64,000 nucleotides of DNA. It comes from an uncultured Gemmatimonadaceae bacterium. GTDB lineage: Bacteria > Gemmatimonadota > Gemmatimonadetes > Gemmatimonadales > Gemmatimonadaceae. A program made the translations under genes and the position numbers. The stretch covers positions 3,104,001-3,168,000 of the forward strand of contig CAVXGK010000002.1 of NCBI GenBank assembly GCA_963761305.1. The letters are read 5' to 3'. The notes beneath the pieces were generated by a model. The model was not told the DNA's origin. It worked only from the letters and a program-made list of their open reading frames with translations, and ran no database searches. Within the stretch, counting starts at the first letter, position 1; every line of letters begins with the position of its first letter. This document shows positions 3,457-32,576 of the stretch, piece after piece.

Positions 3457-3546
3457 CGCACTCGCGCGCACTCGCGCGCAACTTGCGCACAACGGCTAGT
3501 TGCCGGTCGCAGTATACCTTCCTAGACCCTAAGCTGGACTCGACGC

Positions 3547-5163
3547 ATGCCTCGTATTCGGAAAGCCGCCTTCATTGGTGCGTTGTTGGTCCCTGTCGTC
3601 GCAGGTGGATTCCTGCTGCAAGCCCGCTCGCAGCGCGAAGGCGCTGAGCTGCTTGATCAAGTGATGCAGTTGGTGAACGACCGCTTCGTCGACACGCTTC
3701 CGCTGTCCGACGTCTACGCGAAGGCGGCAACCGGACTCGTCAAGGAGCTGAACGACCCGTATAGTGAGCTCCTCACCCCGAAAGATCTCAAACAGTTCAG
3801 CAGCCGAACCGGCGGTCGGTACGGCGGACTCGGCATGCTGATCGAGCCGGACAACGAGACGAAGACAGTTCGCGTCGTGACCGTCTATCCGAATACGCCG
3901 GCCGAGGCCGGCGGCGTGCGGGAGGGCGACCTGATCATCAGAGTCGACACGCTCTCGACGCGCGGCTGGACGATCAACCAAGTTTCCGATTCTCTGACCG
4001 GCACGCCGGGAACGAAGGTCAAGGTTTCGTTCGCGCGTCCGGGCGTCGCCGTGCCGATCACCGCGTCGTTCACACGCGCGATCATCAACGTGCCGGCGGT
4101 TCCCTACGTCATCACGTTCGCCAACAAGATCGGCTACATCCCGCTCCAGCAGTTCAACGAGAACGCCGCGGACAACATCCAGGCCGCGGTCAAGCGGCTC
4201 GAGGACCAGGGTGCGCGCGGCATCATTCTCGACATGCGCGGCGACCCGGGCGGCATTCTCGATCAGAGTCTGCGCGTCGCGAACACGTTCCTGCCGCAAG
4301 GTCAGTTGCTCGCCACGGTGAAAGGACGCGAGGGCCCGATCCAGGTCGAGACGGCGAAGTCCACTCCGATCGCGCCGACAGTTCCGCTCGTCGTGATGAC
4401 GGATGACCGCACCGCCTCGGCGTCGGAGATCGTCGCCGGCGCGTTGCAGGACCACGACCGCGCGCTCGTCGTCGGCCAGACGAGCTTTGGCAAGGGTCTG
4501 GTGCAGGGTGTGTACGATCACCTCGATGGTGGGTACGCCCTCAAGCTGACCACCGGCAAATGGTTCACGCCGAGCGGCCGCTCGATTCAGCGTCCGCGCA
4601 AGTTCGTGAACGGCCAGTTCGTCGAGGAGACGCCGGATTCGAACGAGACGAACGCGACGAAGAAGAACCGCCCGGCATTCAAGTCGGACGCCGGTCGCAC
4701 GGTGTATGGCGGCGGCGGCATCACGCCCGACGTGATCGTGCAGGACGACACGCTGACGACGGCGGAGCAGACGTTCGCCAAGACCATCGCGCCCAAGGGA
4801 CAGGATTTCCTCACCGTGCTCGCCGACTACAGCATGGAGTTGGCGAAGACGGCGTCGCCGACGTTCACGGTTCAGCCGACGTGGGACAACGAGTTCTACA
4901 CCCGGCTCCAGGCGAAGGGTGTCGTGGTGGATCGCAAGACGTTCGACGGCGCGAGCCGCTACGTGAACCGCATGCTCGATCAGCGCATCGCACACTTTGC
5001 ACTCGGCGATTCGGCGGCCAAGCGACGCGATCTCCCGTACGACGCGCCGCTTCGCAAGGCGATCGACCTGCTCGACAAGGGCGGATCGCAACGCGAGCTG
5101 TTCGCCGCCGCCGGCGAGCCGTTGACCTCGACCCACTCTGTCCCGCCCGCGCGAAAGCCGTAA
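3547..5163 (+). CDS. ctpA: carboxyl-terminal processing protease, S41 family (PDZ)
   Basis: signal peptide, LNDPYS, GLGMLI PDZ, DMRGDPGG, TASASE, GKG Ser-Lys dyad. Confidence 0.92.
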   Translation: MPRIRKAAFIGALLVPVVAGGFLLQARSQREGAELLDQVMQLVNDRFVDTLPLSDVYAKAATGLVKELNDPYSELLTPKDLKQFSSRTGGRYGGLGMLIEPDNETKTVRVVTVYPNTPAEAGGVREGDLIIRVDTLSTRGWTINQVSDSLTGTPGTKVKVSFARPGVAVPITASFTRAIINVPAVPYVITFANKIGYIPLQQFNENAADNIQAAVKRLEDQGARGIILDMRGDPGGILDQSLRVANTFLPQGQLLATVKGREGPIQVETAKSTPIAPTVPLVVMTDDRTASASEIVAGALQDHDRALVVGQTSFGKGLVQGVYDHLDGGYALKLTTGKWFTPSGRSIQRPRKFVNGQFVEETPDSNETNATKKNRPAFKSDAGRTVYGGGGITPDVIVQDDTLTTAEQTFAKTIAPKGQDFLTVLADYSMELAKTASPTFTVQPTWDNEFYTRLQAKGVVVDRKTFDGASRYVNRMLDQRIAHFALGDSAAKRRDLPYDAPLRKAIDLLDKGGSQRELFAAAGEPLTSTHSVPPARKP

Positions 5164-5172
5164 GTTTCGCGC

Positions 5173-6249
5173 ATGCGAATCGAGACCCTCACCGCCGCCG
5201 CGATTGTCGCGGCGGCGGTTTCTTCTTGTGCCCATCGCGCGGCCGGTAATCCGGCCACGGCAAGCACGACGAGCAACTCGGCGGGTCCGTCGCCCGAACC
5301 CGGCGAGCGGCACTTCGCCAAGATTCGTCAGCTCACGTTCGGCGGCGAGAATGCCGAAGCGTATTTCAGTCGCGACGGCAAGCGCCTGATCTTCCAGTCC
5401 ACGCGCGGCGGCCGAACGTGCGACCAGCAATACGTGATGAACGTCGACGGCAGCGGCGTGCGTCGCGTCTCCACCGGATTCGGCAAGACGACCTGCGGAT
5501 ATTTCTTCGACGCCGACCGGCGGATCTTCTTCGCGTCGACGCACGCGGCCGACACGGCGTGTCCGCCCAGACCCGATCCTTCCAAGGGCTATGTGTGGGG
5601 GCTCGACCCGTACGACATCTACGTCGCCAACCCCGACGGCTCGGCGCTTCGGCGCCTGACGAACTATGGCGTCTACACCGCGGAGGGCACGCTCTCGCCC
5701 GACGGTCAGACGATCGTGTTCACGTCGCTCAAGGACGGCGATCTCGACATCTACACGATGCGGGTCGACGGGAGCAATCTCAAACGACTCACCTTCCAAC
5801 CCGGCTACGACGGCGGCCCGTTTTTCTCGCCCGACGGGAAGAAGATCGTCTACCGCGCGTGGCATCCGAGCGACACGGCGCTCGTGTCGTACCGCGAGCT
5901 GCTCCGCCAGCGGCTGGTGCGACCCAACCGCATGGAGATCTGGGTCATGAACGCCGACGGCTCGGACCAGCACCAGATCACCAACCTCGGCGGGGCCAAC
6001 TTCGCGCCGTATTTCACGCCGGACGGTCGCCGGATCATCTTCTCGTCCAACTACAAGAATCCGAAGAGCCGAGATTTCGAATTGTATCTTGTGAACCCGG
6101 ACGGGTCGGGACTGGAGCAGGTGACGCACCACGTCGAGTTCGACGGGTTTCCGATGTTCAGTCCGGATGGTACGAAGCTCGTCTGGGCGTCGGGGCGATC
6201 GTCGCGCGAGGGAGAGCTGAACCTCTTCCTCGCCGACTGGGTCCCCTAG
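5173..6249 (+). CDS. TolB-like PD40 beta-propeller lipoprotein
   Basis: lipobox VSSC; repeated (F/L)SPDG..I.F motifs. Confidence 0.88.
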   Translation: MRIETLTAAAIVAAAVSSCAHRAAGNPATASTTSNSAGPSPEPGERHFAKIRQLTFGGENAEAYFSRDGKRLIFQSTRGGRTCDQQYVMNVDGSGVRRVSTGFGKTTCGYFFDADRRIFFASTHAADTACPPRPDPSKGYVWGLDPYDIYVANPDGSALRRLTNYGVYTAEGTLSPDGQTIVFTSLKDGDLDIYTMRVDGSNLKRLTFQPGYDGGPFFSPDGKKIVYRAWHPSDTALVSYRELLRQRLVRPNRMEIWVMNADGSDQHQITNLGGANFAPYFTPDGRRIIFSSNYKNPKSRDFELYLVNPDGSGLEQVTHHVEFDGFPMFSPDGTKLVWASGRSSREGELNLFLADWVP

Positions 6250-7376
6250 CGCAGCGCGGCGCGCAGATTCTCGTCGACGTGCTCGACGCGCTTCATGCCG
6301 ACGAGCGCCGTCGTGACGCCGGGGGCCGACCGCGCGAACGCGATCGCGCGCTGCGCGTCGTTGTCGAACGACGGGAACGCCTCGGCCAGCGCCGGCGGAA
6401 GTCCGGACGACAATTTGCCCTGCATCAGCGTCGCGCTGCCGACCACCATCACGTCGAGCGCGGCGGCCGCTTCGGCCGCCGGCAGCAGTTGCCCGCGCAC
6501 GCTTTGCGTCGGCGTGCGGATCGCTTCGGGCATCGCGAGGTTGATCGGCATCTGAACGGCCCGGAAGTGGTGGTCCTTCCCGGCGAGGTCGCGCGCCAGT
6601 CCGACCAGTCCTTCGATCTCGAGGTGATCCGGCGCGTCCGGTGTCGAGCGCAAACCGTTCCAGGTCGCGCAACCGTACACGCCGATCTCTCCGCGCGACG
6701 CCGCGTCTTCGAGGATCACGAACGCCGAGCGAATGCGTGCCATGAGCTCGTCGCGGCCCACCGCGCTCGCCTGCTGTTCCGGATTGTGCAAGTAGTAGAC
6801 GTCGATGCGCCGCACGCCGAGGTTCTGCCGGCTCTTGGCGAGGCAAAACCGGATGAATCGGGGAGCCAGGCTGTGTCCGCCGCCGACGATCTCGGTCTGC
6901 TGCAGAATCTCCGTGTCGATGAACTCCCGCTTCACGTACGCGCGGTACTCGTCGCGCGACGCTGGCGGCTGGGCATCCAGCGGGATATATCCGCCCTTCG
7001 AGCACACCACTAGTTCGTCGCGCGTCAGGTCGCCCGAGGTCGTCAGGCGGCGCAGGGCCGCGCCCACGGCGCGCTCCGACCGCTGCCCGCGATAGTTCAG
7101 GGCGGTGTCGATCAGATTGATCCCGGAGCGAGCAGCATGCTCGATCGAAGCAGCGTACGCCGCATCGTCGCCCGCCGTGGACTCGCCCAGATACGTCCCG
7201 ATGCCGATCGACGAGACGCTGGCGCCGAGCGGTCCCGCTCGGAAATAGTCCGAGACGAACCGGGGCGCGAGACGATCCCGATACCGCGCCGTGCCGGCGC
7301 CGTTCGCGCGCGGCGCCGGAGCGGCGTCGCTCGTCAGCTCGACGGTCTCGCGCGTACGGGGGGTCCTGCTGGTCAT
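6246..7376 (-). CDS. aldo/keto reductase
   Basis: SSIGIGTY, GINLIDTALNY, SERAVG, CSKGG, IDVYYLHNP; start at ATG 7376. Confidence 0.88.
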   Translation of the reverse strand: MTSRTPRTRETVELTSDAAPAPRANGAGTARYRDRLAPRFVSDYFRAGPLGASVSSIGIGTYLGESTAGDDAAYAASIEHAARSGINLIDTALNYRGQRSERAVGAALRRLTTSGDLTRDELVVCSKGGYIPLDAQPPASRDEYRAYVKREFIDTEILQQTEIVGGGHSLAPRFIRFCLAKSRQNLGVRRIDVYYLHNPEQQASAVGRDELMARIRSAFVILEDAASRGEIGVYGCATWNGLRSTPDAPDHLEIEGLVGLARDLAGKDHHFRAVQMPINLAMPEAIRTPTQSVRGQLLPAAEAAAALDVMVVGSATLMQGKLSSGLPPALAEAFPSFDNDAQRAIAFARSAPGVTTALVGMKRVEHVDENLRAALR

Positions 7377-14715: not shown

Positions 14716-15438
14716 CTACTGCAGCGTCGCCTGCTCTTGCTCCTCGGGCACCGCCGCCAATGGCAGTTCCGCGTCCATGCCGCTGTCCAACCGCTCGGCG
14801 AGCTGCTCCGCCGGTGAGACGAGCAACATCTGCCCGCGACGCTCCACGAGCCCCCCGTGAATCAAGCGGCCAAGCACGAGCGAAACAGACTCGCGCGTCG
14901 CACCGACGAGCTCACACAGCAGGCGATAGCGCGCCGGGCACAGAACGATGCGCCCTTCCTCTCGCTCGAATGTTTCGTCACGCGCCATTCGGACGAGCGT
15001 CGCTACCACACGCTGCTCGACGCTGAGCGTGGTCAGCTCGCGCAGTCGATCCAGCAGCGATGCGCGTTCCGCCAATAGCTGGCTGATCAGCGCGAGTGAA
15101 TGCTGTGGCTGCTCGCGCACGAACGCGCGAAACCGAGCGGTGCTCAGAAAGAGCGTCTCGGCTTCCTCGTCTGCCCGAGCATCCGTCGCATATCGACGAG
15201 TCGACGAGAGTCCTTCAGAACCGAAGGTCTCGCCGGGTCCCGCGACACACGGCACGAACCCGCGTGACGCGCGAACGCGACTGCGCAACACCACCCGCCC
15301 CCGGGCCACGACGAACAGCCCATCCGCCGGCGCACCGCGCTGATAGATGCCGAATCCCGCTGGCCACGACGCATGCGCCGCATACTCACTGAGGGCGTCG
15401 CGATTCTCCTTCTCGAGACGCGCGCGACCGTAATCCAT
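14716..15438 (-). CDS. Crp/Fnr-family transcription regulator
   Basis: cNMP-fold GETFGSEGL; C-terminal HTH ELVGATRESVS; GGAG RBS before ATG 15438. Confidence 0.88.
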   Translation of the reverse strand: MDYGRARLEKENRDALSEYAAHASWPAGFGIYQRGAPADGLFVVARGRVVLRSRVRASRGFVPCVAGPGETFGSEGLSSTRRYATDARADEEAETLFLSTARFRAFVREQPQHSLALISQLLAERASLLDRLRELTTLSVEQRVVATLVRMARDETFEREEGRIVLCPARYRLLCELVGATRESVSLVLGRLIHGGLVERRGQMLLVSPAEQLAERLDSGMDAELPLAAVPEEQEQATLQ

Positions 15439-15605
15439 ATCCGACAACTCCACCATCCTCTCAGCTTGCAACGATTTGTGGGGGGTGCAATGTCTGGGCC
15501 GCTCTTGACAGGCTCCGCTTTTCGACCTTCGTTCTGAAGTTTGATTCAAGGGAGGTCGGCACCTCCATTTCTTTCGGCTGAACCGGCTACGGAACAACGC
15601 ATTTC

Positions 15606-17336
15606 ATGAACTTGGCGGCGGCCGCACCAGAGCAGACCGAATCCACCGTTTCGCAAACCGTGCCCGTGGTCGTTCTCGGGACGGATGCGTTGCTCGCCGC
15701 CGCGCCCTACACCGCCGTGCAACTCGCCCACGCGTGCTTGCAAGCGGGATACGCGAACGTCGTTCCCGCGAGTTGGGGCGATGAGTTGGTCGCCGCCGCG
15801 GTGATTCGACGATTGCCGACGTTCGGTCCCGGTCCGGCGATTCAGTGCAGTTGTCCGATCGTCGCTCATCGTTTGCTCACGACGGGCGGCGATTTGCGGC
15901 CGGTGATGTTGCCGCTCGTATCGCCGCCGGTGGCGCTCGCACGATATCTTCGCGCGGTGTCGCACCCCGCGCGCATGCGCATCACCTACGTCGGTGGTTG
16001 CCCCGGCGCGGTCGACGACTCGATCGACATCCGCATGTCGCCGGGAACACTGATCGGAATGCTCGCCGAACGACAGATCGTCCTCGATGACCAGCCACGC
16101 GTTTTCGAGTCGATCATTCCGCCTGACCGGCGCCGCTATTTCTCACAGCCCGGCGGCGTCCCGTCCGCGGAGCGACTGTGGACCGACCTCGGCGCGCGCG
16201 CGCTCGTCGACGTCGAGTCGGACGATTTCGTGAGCGAGATCGCCGACCATCTTCTCGCCGGCGAGCACGTGTTGATGGACGTCGCACCGCGACTCGGCTG
16301 CGTGTGCAGCGGCGCGATCGCCGGCACTCCGGCGCGCGAAGCGCGCGCGAGCGTTGTCGCGCTCGAGCCGCCGCGCTCCAGCGCGCCGGTGGTCGAAGAG
16401 CAGACACCGCTCAATCTGGATCTGCCGATTCCCGCCGTTCCGCGCACGCCGGTGGACGTCGTGCTTGGGTCGTCGCGCACGCCGTCGTCTCCGCTCGGAC
16501 TGCCGAACCCGCCAGGGGCGCATCGCAATACGCCGACCGTCACCGAACCACGCATTTCACGAACGCCGCCTCCGCCGCCGGCTCGGCCGATTACCGGCGG
16601 CGTGGTTCCCACGGCGAGGCACGCCGACGGGAAGTCACTCCCGCGGGCGTATGTGGCGCGTCGCCGTCACTCGGCACCAAAAGGAAATCCGTCAGTTCCT
16701 CCGCCCGCGTCGAACGAACAGGCGCCCGGCGCGTCGATCGCGCCCGAGACGGCGGATGTCGCGCTCGCAGCGTCGATCGAGATGCCGCCGCCGGCCGCGA
16801 CGGAGACGAGCGTGGCGGAGCCGCAAGTCGAAGCGACGAACGTTTCGACGGTCGAGGTGCCGAGCACCAAAGCACCGAGCGCGGAAGCGCCGAGCGTCGA
16901 AGGGCCGACAACCGAAGCGAGAATCGTCGGACCGTCACCCGACGAAACGTCTTCGGTCGTCGCCGTCACGGATGCCGACAGTGAGAAACTGATCGCGGCA
17001 ACGGACGAACCGGAGTCTTCGGCGGCCGCTGACGCCTATACGGATCTGAATCAGTTGAACTTCGAAGGACTGGTGCCGCCGCCGGAGCGGCTCCCGATTT
17101 TTACGCCGACGCCTCCTTCCACAATCGCGGTGTCGACGAGGCCATCAGACCCAACGCCATCAAACCCAACGCCGTCAAACCCGACACCAACGACCGTTGC
17201 GGCACCGCGCGTACAATCGCGTATCGCGATGTACGTCATCGCCGTCGCCATTGTGATCCTGGTCGTCGCCGGCGTTGCGTACGTGATGGGGCGGTCGGCG
17301 CAGACACCGAACGCGCCGACCGAGCAGCTCCCCTGA
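15606..17336 (+). CDS. membrane-anchored protein with N-terminal degenerate [FeFe]-hydrogenase H-domain-like fold and Pro-rich linker
   Basis: QCSCP, LPLVSPPVALARYL, TYVGGCP, RYFSQPGGV, GCVCSG in H-domain order; C-terminal TM IAMYVIAVAIVILVVAGVAYV. Confidence 0.65.
   Translation: MNLAAAAPEQTESTVSQTVPVVVLGTDALLAAAPYTAVQLAHACLQAGYANVVPASWGDELVAAAVIRRLPTFGPGPAIQCSCPIVAHRLLTTGGDLRPVMLPLVSPPVALARYLRAVSHPARMRITYVGGCPGAVDDSIDIRMSPGTLIGMLAERQIVLDDQPRVFESIIPPDRRRYFSQPGGVPSAERLWTDLGARALVDVESDDFVSEIADHLLAGEHVLMDVAPRLGCVCSGAIAGTPAREARASVVALEPPRSSAPVVEEQTPLNLDLPIPAVPRTPVDVVLGSSRTPSSPLGLPNPPGAHRNTPTVTEPRISRTPPPPPARPITGGVVPTARHADGKSLPRAYVARRRHSAPKGNPSVPPPASNEQAPGASIAPETADVALAASIEMPPPAATETSVAEPQVEATNVSTVEVPSTKAPSAEAPSVEGPTTEARIVGPSPDETSSVVAVTDADSEKLIAATDEPESSAAADAYTDLNQLNFEGLVPPPERLPIFTPTPPSTIAVSTRPSDPTPSNPTPSNPTPTTVAAPRVQSRIAMYVIAVAIVILVVAGVAYVMGRSAQTPNAPTEQLP
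17142..17190 (+). repeat. 15-nt imperfect coding tandem repeat (PS(D/N)PT x3)
   Basis: ccatcagacccaacg ccatcaaacccaacg ccgtcaaacccgaca. Confidence 0.7.
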
Positions 17337-30839: not shown

Positions 30840-32576
30840 TCAGTGGTTTCGCGTCAGCGCTCGCATCTCTGCCGTCTGCAGCGGGCGCCGACTGACTCCC
30901 ACTCGCTCCGGCGCCAACGGCGGCGGCGGAATGCCGTCCCACAGCACCACGCCGAGCGGCGTGCCGCCGCCCTGGCGCACGCCGTCGAGTGCTCGCTTGA
31001 GATCAGCGAGCCTCGTGTGACCGATGCGCGCGCAGACGACGACATCCGGAACGGGGAGCGCACCGGCAAGACCAGCGGCCGCTTGTTCCAGCGTCGAAAC
31101 CAGCACGATCGCCTCGTAGTGACGCGCGAGGCGAATCGCCTCCTGTCGAAACAGTTCCGACAACGCCGCCACGTCGAGCGGCGTGGGAGATGTGCCGCTC
31201 GGGATGACGTCGATGGTCCGATCGCGACCAGCCATTGTTTGCGTTGTCACTTCCGCCCAGTCGATGTTTGACCGAAGAACGTCGGCGACTCCAGGCTCGG
31301 CGTGACAGCGAAGCGCCGCGGCGAGCGGCAACGATTGCGCGTCGGTGTCGATGAGAATGGTGCTGCGTGCCTCGTCCGCCGCGATGGCGGCGACGTTCAT
31401 GCCGACCACGGCCGCGATGCTCGTCTCCGCGCCGGTGACGGTCAAGGACAGCCGCGTCGCCCCGGGGCGGACGACATGCAAGTAGGTCAGCTGATAACTC
31501 GGCGCACGCGGGTCGAAGTAGGGAGGTGCAATCCGATCGGCGAGCCGGCGGTCGCGGTTTGGGTCGCGGGGACGCCGCGACGCCGTAGCGAGCACTCTGA
31601 CGCCGGTCACGCGCTCGACCTCGTGTTCATCGCTGATGCGCGGGTGGCTCATCTCGCCAAAGAACGCGGTCCCGAACCCGAGAACCACGCCGATGACGAG
31701 CGCCGCGCCGAGCAGGGCGACTGGCGGCGCGCTCACCTGGGACGTCGCGCGTTCGCGCGCGCTCTCGCGATCGTAGTCCTCCGCTCTTCGGCGCGCCCCG
31801 ACGAGCGCCGTGTCCGCGTCGACGACCAATGATTGCGCCGAGTCCCGCTCAGCGGCCCAACCGGCAGTATCGGTGATTTGCGCGACCGGTGTCAGCTGTG
31901 GTTCGCCTGCCACGCCGATGGCGGCGGCTGATTGACGAAGCGAGTCCCGCGTCGCACGACCGATCGCTTGGATCGCCTGGCCGACGGCGGTCACCCGGGC
32001 CGAGAGAGTCGCGGCGGCGGAATCGCCGCCACCCGGCAGACCGAATGCTTCGCGCTCACGTTCGAGCTCGTTGAGCGAATCGAGGAGTGTCCTGACGCGC
32101 GGCGCGGCTGCGAGCGGCGGGGACTGCGCCAGCGCCCTGTATGACGCCACGACAGGTGCGGTCTCGATTCTCGTGAGCAGCGCATCGAGGTTCCCCGCCG
32201 CCGCCGAGAGTGAGTCCCGCGTAACCAAAGTGAGACTGACGGTCGACGCGCCGGGCGACGGCGCCATCGCCGCGGACCGCGCCCGTGCGAGCGCCGACTC
32301 GACCGACGCCAGTCGCGCGCGCGCCTGCACCACAGCGGTGGCGGGGAGCGCGGTGTCCGGCCGGACCGCTCGCGACGCAGAGAGGGGCGAAGCGGATCGC
32401 CGCGCCTGGAACGGCGTGATCACGAGCGACACGAGGACGGCGACGAACGCGCCGACACCAACTGCGCCGATGAAAATCGGCCGATTGACGGCGTTCCTCG
32501 CGCGAGCCGTGAGCCAGGCGTTCCGCGAAGTTCCGCGATGGTGGGACGCCGAGGACTGGCTGGGCGGGTGCGTCAT
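30840..32576 (-). CDS. Wzc/polysaccharide co-polymerase-like protein with degenerate kinase domain
   Basis: TM-coil-TM, RISDEHEVERVTGVRVL, LIDTD, PGVADVL, VIPSG; no GK(S/T) Walker A. Confidence 0.72.
   Translation of the reverse strand: MTHPPSQSSASHHRGTSRNAWLTARARNAVNRPIFIGAVGVGAFVAVLVSLVITPFQARRSASPLSASRAVRPDTALPATAVVQARARLASVESALARARSAAMAPSPGASTVSLTLVTRDSLSAAAGNLDALLTRIETAPVVASYRALAQSPPLAAAPRVRTLLDSLNELEREREAFGLPGGGDSAAATLSARVTAVGQAIQAIGRATRDSLRQSAAAIGVAGEPQLTPVAQITDTAGWAAERDSAQSLVVDADTALVGARRRAEDYDRESARERATSQVSAPPVALLGAALVIGVVLGFGTAFFGEMSHPRISDEHEVERVTGVRVLATASRRPRDPNRDRRLADRIAPPYFDPRAPSYQLTYLHVVRPGATRLSLTVTGAETSIAAVVGMNVAAIAADEARSTILIDTDAQSLPLAAALRCHAEPGVADVLRSNIDWAEVTTQTMAGRDRTIDVIPSGTSPTPLDVAALSELFRQEAIRLARHYEAIVLVSTLEQAAAGLAGALPVPDVVVCARIGHTRLADLKRALDGVRQGGGTPLGVVLWDGIPPPPLAPERVGVSRRPLQTAEMRALTRNH

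Follow-up and report, generated by a model that had tools for sequence, protein, structure and literature searches.

A tail-anchored protein family of Gemmatimonadaceae with a relic [FeFe]-hydrogenase H-domain and a predicted iron-sulfur site

The gene at positions 15606..17336 (forward strand, stop codon included) of the window, by which we mean the whole stretch of 64,000 nucleotides analysed here from a soil Gemmatimonadaceae bacterium, encodes a 576-residue protein whose N-terminal head, we are highly confident, adopts the H-domain fold of [FeFe]-hydrogenases and is homologous to that domain. We conclude with the same high confidence that the protein is not itself a hydrogenase. By alignment, three of four conserved cysteines in the head (C83, C132 and C232) are at the ligand positions of the [4Fe-4S] part of the H-cluster ([4Fe-4S]H), and the sequence predicts that the head probably binds an iron-sulfur (Fe-S) cluster. 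Because four invariant or near-invariant cysteines have been kept and the hydrogen-reactive site has been lost, it is likely that only such a cluster would be bound. At its other end, the protein is predicted from its structural model to be tail-anchored in the inner membrane. The gene is more than chance: at E ≤ 1e-3, an exhaustive HMMER search returned no fewer than 478 cluster representatives (303 of them at E ≤ 1e-30), a word-indexed search returned at least 836 clusters at 90% identity, and the motifs described below are invariant or near-invariant in 266 relatives. Most of these relatives are annotated as 'hypothetical'.

The 576-residue translation carries, in order, QLAHACLQAGYANVVPASWGDELV, IQCSCP (C81/C83), LPLVSPPVALARYL, ITYVGGCP (C132), RYFSQPGGV and MDVAPRLGCVCSG (C232/C234), so that the open reading frame and every motif quoted in an earlier note, made from the sequence of this DNA, were confirmed residue for residue. 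An AlphaFold2 model of residues 1-265, built with 47 diverse relatives, reached a predicted local distance difference test score (pLDDT) of 91.2 and a predicted template modelling score of 0.87. When this model was compared with the PDB using Foldseek, 73 matches were obtained at E ≤ 1e-3, and among the matches listed all were [FeFe]-hydrogenases, the best being CpI (E 7.9e-8) and the apo-HydA1 entry 3LX4 also being present. VIA-align superposed 244 residues of the head on residues 220-552 of CpI with a Z-score of 17.2 and a root-mean-square deviation of 3.4 Å. This signal is specific, because 74 chains scored Z ≥ 8 and 76 scored Z ≥ 5, leaving only two further chains between Z 5 and 8.

Sequence comparison places the head in the same fold family, chiefly through intermediates. 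The Pfam profile PF02906 (Fe_hyd_lg_C) scored 19.8 bits against the full protein, 21.8 bits against residues 1-265 and 21.7 bits in a six-frame search of the genome, each just under the gathering score of 22.1 bits. Among 47 diverse relatives, 38 matched the profile at E ≤ 0.01, the best at 3.4e-8. The comparison with PF02906 that the earlier note had suggested as a check thus gives a match for most of these relatives and one just sub-threshold for the window protein itself. A phmmer search of residues 1-265 against PDB chains gave nothing at E ≤ 10, a domain-only family profile reached T. maritima HydA at just E 0.93, and an ESM Atlas search returned only the protein's own Gemmatimonadota clusters. 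A family profile that included the linker was rejected, as it matched only low-complexity ribosomal proteins in the PDB. Direct hhalign comparison of the family with four true hydrogenases was weak (probability 28%, E 6e-4, residues 35-168 only). Homology was established by a related family of proteins with the architecture Fer4, H-like domain, FeS and GGDEF, described below: the window family aligns with this intermediate at a probability of 99.85% (E 1.5e-30, 245 columns), the intermediate aligns with true hydrogenases at 98.96% (E 8.9e-18), and the window-family profile itself matches the true hydrogenases of four genomes at E 1e-12 to 1e-15. The similarity to the H-domain fold that the earlier note had proposed is thus borne out by Foldseek, by VIA-align and by the family profile.

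The machinery that a hydrogenase would require is missing from the genome. In the whole of the 5.2-Mb genome to which the window belongs (G000; 2 contigs, 93% complete), no HydE, HydF or HydG scored above the curated NCBIfam cut-offs, the best scores being 34, 75 and 18 bits against cut-offs of 255, 326 and 312 bits, respectively. This absence, which the earlier note had recorded for the window and which extends to the whole genome, is informative because control genomes with true hydrogenases scored positive: HydG and HydF lie next to hydA in both of the two Gemmatimonadota genomes used as positive control. HydG and HydF were also absent from all three tested genomes that carry the GGDEF-linked form. 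The gene at 15606..17336 is the sole PF02906 match in G000. Within the protein, hhalign shows that the Met residues flanking the [2Fe] site have been replaced in the window family, profile alignments agree that the Lys and Glu of the L2 motif and the first Cys of the L3 motif are missing, and Pfam detected no ferredoxin (Fer4) domain or accessory clusters, all but the first of these being points raised beforehand. The H-domain fold would be compatible with a genuine, very divergent [FeFe]-hydrogenase, but with no HydE/F/G in the genome, the L2 Lys/Glu and first L3 Cys absent, the flanking Met residues replaced and no accessory clusters found by Pfam, such an identity is scarcely credible, and the earlier judgement that this is not a hydrogenase stands.

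The fate of the H-cluster ligands was traced by hidden Markov model alignment to T. maritima HydA and by hhalign, with the H-cluster residues and their roles given in CpI numbering (C300, C355, C499 and C503). C81-S82-C83 (15846..15854, forward strand) corresponds to the L1 motif TSCCP, with C83 aligned to its cluster-ligand Cys (C300), S82 to the proton-relay Cys and C81 to the Ser. Across the family, the first-Cys position of L1 is Ser, Ala, Val or Thr, and TSCCP with both cysteines was not encountered. C132 in ITYVGGCPGA (15999..16001, forward strand) is the hhalign counterpart of the Cys of the L2 motif MPCxxKxxE (C355); in the alignment of GGC132PGAVDD to MPCTAKKFE, the Cys is retained and the Lys and Glu are absent. 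In the L3 region, C232-V233-C234 (16299..16307, forward strand) was placed by hhalign via the GGDEF-linked family, an alignment that, within ExMxCxxxC, transitively pairs D225 with the E, A227 with the M, R229 with the first C and C232 with the second. C232 is thereby at the position of the bridging Cys (C503), R229 replaces the first L3 Cys (C499), and C234 is without a counterpart. As a separate observation on L1, two true hydrogenases from another Gemmatimonadota family (L077:838-2556:+ and L079:1297-3267:-), which score ~320 bits to PF02906 and lie beside HydG/HydF, have TSCSP, with Ser where the second Cys aligns; their paralogues (L076 and L078) have the canonical TSCCP.

Of the 269 rows examined, in which the window protein is counted twice, 266 relatives spanned the domain and were used to count conservation. 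C83, C132 and C234 are present in 266/266 and C232 in 265/266, and the four cysteines singled out by the earlier note are thus conserved. C81 (261/266) and C44 (251/266) follow closely, with R229 present in just 173/266. Conservation also extends to residues other than cysteine. In the loop D174-R175-R176-R177..S180.P182-G183-G184 (16125..16157, forward strand), D174, R175, R177, S180, G183 and G184 are found in all 266 relatives and R176 in 264, and its SxPGG is the counterpart of the SGG(V) element of hydrogenases. The triple Arg is specific to the tail-anchored and GGDEF-linked clades, the latter having EERRRHWSTAGG in its family alignment (A5). P54, G58 and E60 of PASWGDE are likewise present in 266/266. 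In the model of residues 1-265, the conserved cysteines each fall in a loop just past the end of a β-strand (E78-81, E124-129 and E222-225), and such loops are presumably where the ligand sites of α/β folds lie. A CxC pair that ligates a single cubane has a precedent in ferredoxin:thioredoxin reductase.

A full-length AlphaFold2 model, built with 50 relatives, divides the protein into an ordered head, a disordered linker and a membrane helix. The H-domain-like fold spans residues 19-285 (15660..16460, forward strand), as judged from the order in the model and from the Foldseek and VIA-align matches, and its C-terminal segment of residues 252-285 (ALEPPR..PVVEE..LDLPIPAVPRTPVDV) wraps the head as part of its ordered structure, with a pLDDT of 81-93. 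The Pro/Ala/Arg/Ser-rich linker of residues 286-534 (16461..17207, forward strand) has a pLDDT of ~40-60. It is followed by a transmembrane (TM) helix of residues 535-564 (17208..17297, forward strand; pLDDT ~94), with a hydrophobic core at ~540-562 and a Kyte-Doolittle 19-mer value of 2.96 at residue 540, and by a 12-residue tail (17298-17333, forward strand). The earlier note had described a linker of ~300 residues and one C-terminal TM helix; the helix is confirmed and the linker is shorter, at ~250 residues, because low confidence in the full-length model is confined to residues 286-534. Sequence inspection revealed no hydrophobic N-terminal segment or signal peptide in the protein. Since just 12 residues follow the sole TM helix, the protein would be tail-anchored and its head cytoplasmic. 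PF02906, below its gathering score, was the only domain that Pfam detected in the 576 residues, and NCBIfam gave zero matches. The start ATG is aligned in 12/12 orthologous loci, and the G+C content of the window (64-70%) shows no break in composition at the gene.

The tether is a recurrent feature of the family. A TM segment follows the linker in 226/268 relatives, and the linker, with a median length of 217 residues (range 90-487), is composed of 16.6% Pro, 16.1% Ala, 9.5% Arg and 9.3% Ser. Within it lies a short linear motif, L345-PRAYVARRR-354 (16638..16667, forward strand), that is unchanged in 12/12 close relatives. Its P346 and R353 are conserved at ≥90% among 50 relatives, and LPRAYVARRR was matched in 161/268 relatives by a strict regular expression and in 188/268 by a loose one. 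More than 60 residues follow the TM segment in 40 of the 226 TM-bearing relatives, some with a conserved helix. Five relatives from outside the window (P0148, P0169, P0240, P0260 and P0268) extend 150-220 residues past the TM helix, and this extension is made up of more low-complexity sequence and a helix, E(I/L)xxIRAELxRRxARLDSI, that is conserved. A Pfam scan of the post-TM regions of 11 longer relatives gave no domain besides PF02906.

The distribution of the family was assessed in sampled genomes, so that absence means not found among those searched. High family-profile scores (209-390 bits) occurred solely in Gemmatimonadaceae, in 31 of the 94 sampled genomes (30 of the 93 others plus G000), with 1-3 copies of the tail-anchored gene per carrier genome. 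A PF02906 scan of 401 Gemmatimonadota genomes revealed two other groups. True hydrogenases, scoring ~320 bits, occur in one family (f10), where they were found in 5/13 genomes. The second group, which scored 35-80 bits and occurs in sister Gemmatimonadales families, consists of Fer4 - Fe_hyd_lg_C - FeS (PF04060) - GGDEF proteins whose gene lies directly 3' of a sigma-54 activator gene (L081-L087, for example L083:1246-2937:+). This GGDEF-linked form, which scores ~110-147 bits with the window-family profile, was found in 153/166 genomes of family f2, 2/2 of f5 and 12/30 of f6, and was not found in the sampled genomes of the window's own family. In a maximum-likelihood tree of 53 rows, none of which was dropped, the tail-anchored and GGDEF-linked forms make up a joint clade with 100/100 support against the true hydrogenases.

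The uncharacterised GGDEF-linked cyclases (for example L081-L087 and P0270-P0389) are the closest comparison, since their H-like domain is homologous to that of the window protein over its whole length. Both families are from Gemmatimonadota and share a PASWGDE-like GDELVA, (D/E)RRR..S.xGG and EPxR..PV motifs, cysteines equivalent to C300, C355 and C503, and the absence of the L2 Lys. The cyclases are soluble, with an N-terminal 2x[4Fe-4S] ferredoxin and, at the C-terminus, an FeS (PF04060) and a GGDEF domain (as in L083), whereas the window protein lacks the Fer4, FeS and GGDEF domains and has, after its head, a disordered linker followed by a TM helix. They also keep both L3 cysteines, as CxxC, whereas the window protein uses CxC twice.

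Relics of the H-domain (Nar1/NARF) and sensory H-domains (HydS) are already known, and the tail-anchored form appears undescribed: no description of the family was found in the literature, supplements aside. Like Nar1, NARF and CIAO3, the window protein has an H-domain relic that retains H-domain cysteines and lacks the [2Fe]H cofactor and hydrogenase activity. Nar1, a soluble eukaryotic factor for the assembly of cytosolic Fe-S proteins, carries an additional ferredoxin-like cluster site at its N-terminus, whereas the window protein is bacterial and membrane-anchored and is without an N-terminal cluster site (it has no Cys before C44 and no Fer4). Compared with site 2 of Nar1, it has Cys at three of four positions and Arg229 at the fourth, for which the invariant C234 is a possible substitute. 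The Fe-S clusters of Nar1 are O2-labile, and a role in trafficking, with its clusters being labile, has been proposed for Nar1 (PMC12621388); NARF is counted as a non-hydrogenase homologue by HydDB (bioRxiv 10.1101/061994). The putative sensory [FeFe]-hydrogenases HydS, such as Thermotoga maritima HydS, differ from the window protein in another direction, as they have a complete H-cluster, depend on the maturases and carry FeS and PAS domains. The window protein has neither a complete H-cluster site nor maturases, and it lacks a C-terminal FeS/PAS or other signalling domain. In the HydS proteins of groups C and D, the H-domain serves as a signalling input rather than in bulk catalysis (PMC10055695). 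Fe_hyd_lg_C, together with Fer4 and FeS, is also listed among the regulatory input domains of sigma-54 activators (PMC6615313). Compared with catalytic H-domains (CpI, HydA1 and apo-HydA1 3LX4), the head has the same fold, with 244/265 residues superposed at Z 16-17 and 10-16% identity. It is reduced to ~250 residues against an aligned range of ~330 in the catalytic domain, and it is membrane-tethered with the [2Fe]-site residues, maturases and accessory clusters gone.

The genomic context was examined for possible partners. The gene is flanked by a divergent gene for a Crp/Fnr-family regulator (14716..15456, reverse strand; 246 residues from the ATG at 15456; cNMP_binding and HTH_Crp_2 by Pfam) and by a convergent gene for an M28/PA/TFR-type peptidase, with an α/β hydrolase beyond the regulator. 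A divergent Crp-like gene precedes the H-like gene in 41/63 related loci, an adjacency that reflects general synteny, because the hydrolase and peptidase are also conserved in those loci. Among the genomes shared by two genome samples, both genes were present in 10, where they were adjacent and divergent in 10/10; the H-like gene occurred without this regulator in 5, and the regulator without the H-like gene in 10 (one of which, G157, is unpublished). In 5/6 of the examined genomes that have the regulator alone, crp and the M28 peptidase gene are immediate neighbours, which makes the H-like gene an insertion or deletion in a conserved backbone. The Crp-like gene is thus a frequent but not obligatory neighbour. 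Distant family members have other neighbours: ThiF/MoeB-rhodanese (L042 and L044), DUF4097 and penicillin amidase (L061 and L065), or a sulfocyanin (SoxE-type cupredoxin) gene directly downstream (L068 and L075). Elsewhere in the window, two open reading frames on the reverse strand, 3529-7005 (1157 residues) and 30840-32576 (577 residues), had no Pfam match at E ≤ 1e-5.

Between the Crp-like and H-like genes lies a 25-nucleotide element, TGCAATGTCTGGGCCGCTCTTGACA (15486..15510, no strand assigned), that is present in 12/12 aligned loci, identical in 11/12 and interrupted by one 3-nucleotide insertion in L030. Its sequence suggests that it is likely an operator or promoter element. In L090 (~2033-2058), a genome devoid of the H-like gene, a perfect palindrome TGTCC-N6-GGACA (CAATGTCCGGG/CCCGGACATTG) that shares the left half of the element precedes crp, so the element would most simply be an operator belonging to the regulator and would be shared with the H-like gene. 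A search of the genome for the element with 0 mismatches found its own site only, and at two mismatches gave 5 matches besides itself versus 9 for the control. In the intergenic region, Rfam gave nothing meaningful and a sigma-70 scan found no promoter. A terminator-like hairpin, GGAGGTCGGCACCTCC, with a T-rich run lies at 15551-15566 (forward strand) in the presumed 5' leader and is not kept in the aligned loci. A predicted complex of residues 1-365 with the Crp-like neighbour scored 0.00 in a run with no controls and speaks neither for nor against binding.

We tentatively favour, with confidence just below even, the reading that the head is a membrane-tethered redox or O2 sensor that carries an Fe-S cluster only, as a maturase-independent relic of the H-domain. 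C83, C132 and C232, plus C234 (or C81), would ligate a [4Fe-4S] cluster beside the emptied [2Fe] cavity, where it would be exposed to small oxidants. The state of the cluster would alter the head and its wrapped segment of residues 252-285, and this change might be read out near the membrane by some partner via linker motifs such as LPRAYVARRR. Our confidence that the window protein acts as a sensor at all, taken as a claim of its own, is somewhat below even; it is argued from the pairing of the same domain with a GGDEF output in the sister clade, from the listing of the domain in sigma-54 activators and, by analogy, from the O2-labile clusters of Nar1. Several observations weigh against this reading. 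No recognisable output domain was found in the 576 residues. The fourth canonical ligand position is Arg, Ala or Ser in the family, so that the ligand set would need to be rewired through C234 or C81. The neighbourhood in the window is one of housekeeping genes (peptidases, arginine biosynthesis and IspG), and since neighbourhoods differ among distant members, there is no conserved partner that would support a signalling pathway. A TM segment was not seen in 42/268 relatives, and while many of these are metagenomic fragments, some may be soluble. Finally, the tail-anchored clade was monophyletic in just 30% of bootstrap trees, and the tree therefore does not settle whether the GGDEF-linked architecture came first or the reverse.

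An unlikely elaboration of the sensor is that the two CxC motifs (C81-x-C83 and C232-x-C234) and C132 rebuild the active-site pocket into a new Fe-S switch. The pocket would then hold a [4Fe-4S] cubane with a fifth Cys, or a second small cluster in the [2Fe]H cavity, as recently proposed for Nar1. Oxidation by O2, nitric oxide or thiol oxidants would free the wrapped segment and expose LPRAYVARRR, and a partner would thereby be recruited or released at the membrane. A slightly less probable reading, and one we regard as doubtful, is that the protein is an Fe-S carrier or adaptor resembling Nar1/CIAO3, passing a labile cluster to membrane or membrane-proximal clients with linker motifs as docking sites. 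It would account for the fold shared with Nar1, the missing [2Fe]H site and the conserved short motifs of the linker, and it draws on the trafficking role proposed for Nar1 (PMC12621388), but the window protein has no equivalent of the ferredoxin-like site at the N-terminus of Nar1, Fe-S assembly genes were not seen nearby, and the closest relatives are signalling enzymes. A patchy occurrence in one bacterial family (31/94 genomes) would also be odd for a core maturation factor.

About equally doubtful is a scaffold that is either cofactor-less or stabilised by Zn, in which the head would be an interaction domain of a bitopic protein that organises the cell envelope and the cysteines would be structural or Zn-binding. 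A long Pro/Ala-rich linker with a TM helix does recall envelope organisers, the fourth canonical cluster ligand is missing, and some of the 40/226 TM-bearing relatives that extend past the TM helix do so with a conserved helix. However, three of the conserved cysteines coincide exactly with the ligand positions of [4Fe-4S]H, Fer4 and FeS domains still flank this domain in the sister family, and many pocket residues other than Cys are strictly invariant (PASWGDE and DRRR..SxPGG). Conserved cysteines at cluster-ligand positions, the membrane tether of the AlphaFold2 model and the sulfocyanin gene downstream in L068 and L075 would also fit an electron-transfer module, in which a stable [4Fe-4S] head, held by the tether, shuttles electrons to or from a respiratory complex of the membrane. 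We think this improbable by a shade more again, as no redox-enzyme partner is conserved across loci, a lone cluster would be without relay partners, and carriers rarely need a disordered linker of 90-487 residues with conserved motifs. Very unlikely, lastly, is an anti-regulator, whose head or linker would, much as an anti-sigma factor does, sequester the divergent Crp/Fnr-family factor at the membrane depending on the state of the cluster. The adjacency of the two genes in 41/63 loci and in 10/10 genomes that have both, the element conserved between them and the lack of a sensory Cys cluster in the sequence of the Crp-like protein itself are what one would expect. Against this, co-occurrence is loose (5 genomes with only the H-like gene, 10 with only crp), the H-like gene is an insertion or deletion in a crp-peptidase backbone conserved in 5/6 genomes, the whole neighbourhood is syntenic, so that the adjacency may be inherited, and the intergenic element also precedes crp in a genome devoid of the H-like gene.

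Whichever function applies, the family adds to the natural history of the H-domain. Non-hydrogenase descendants of this domain are known mainly from eukaryotes (Nar1/NARF). Here, several hundred sequence clusters make up a clade of soil bacteria, in which maturase genes were not found, that has retained the fold and Cys at three of the four positions that ligate the cubane but has discarded the [2Fe] site, and it has a sister clade wired to the synthesis of cyclic di-GMP. A lack of non-hydrogenase homologues hampers the rooting of the [FeFe]-hydrogenase tree, as noted in a recent survey (PMC11216029). The long disordered tether with conserved linear motifs, tail-anchored in the membrane, is an unusual layout for an Fe-S protein. 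For annotation, the results counsel caution, in that PF02906 matches in Gemmatimonadota do not indicate H2 metabolism. A compact (~265 residues), maturase-independent H-domain lets one ask what a bare [4Fe-4S]H pocket does, and the tail-anchored family is a natural comparison for Nar1. Should the switch version of the sensor prove true, a single tail-anchored Fe-S protein without an enzymatic output domain would make up the whole signalling device, and it would be a living bacterial example of an H-domain turned to a use other than hydrogenase activity.

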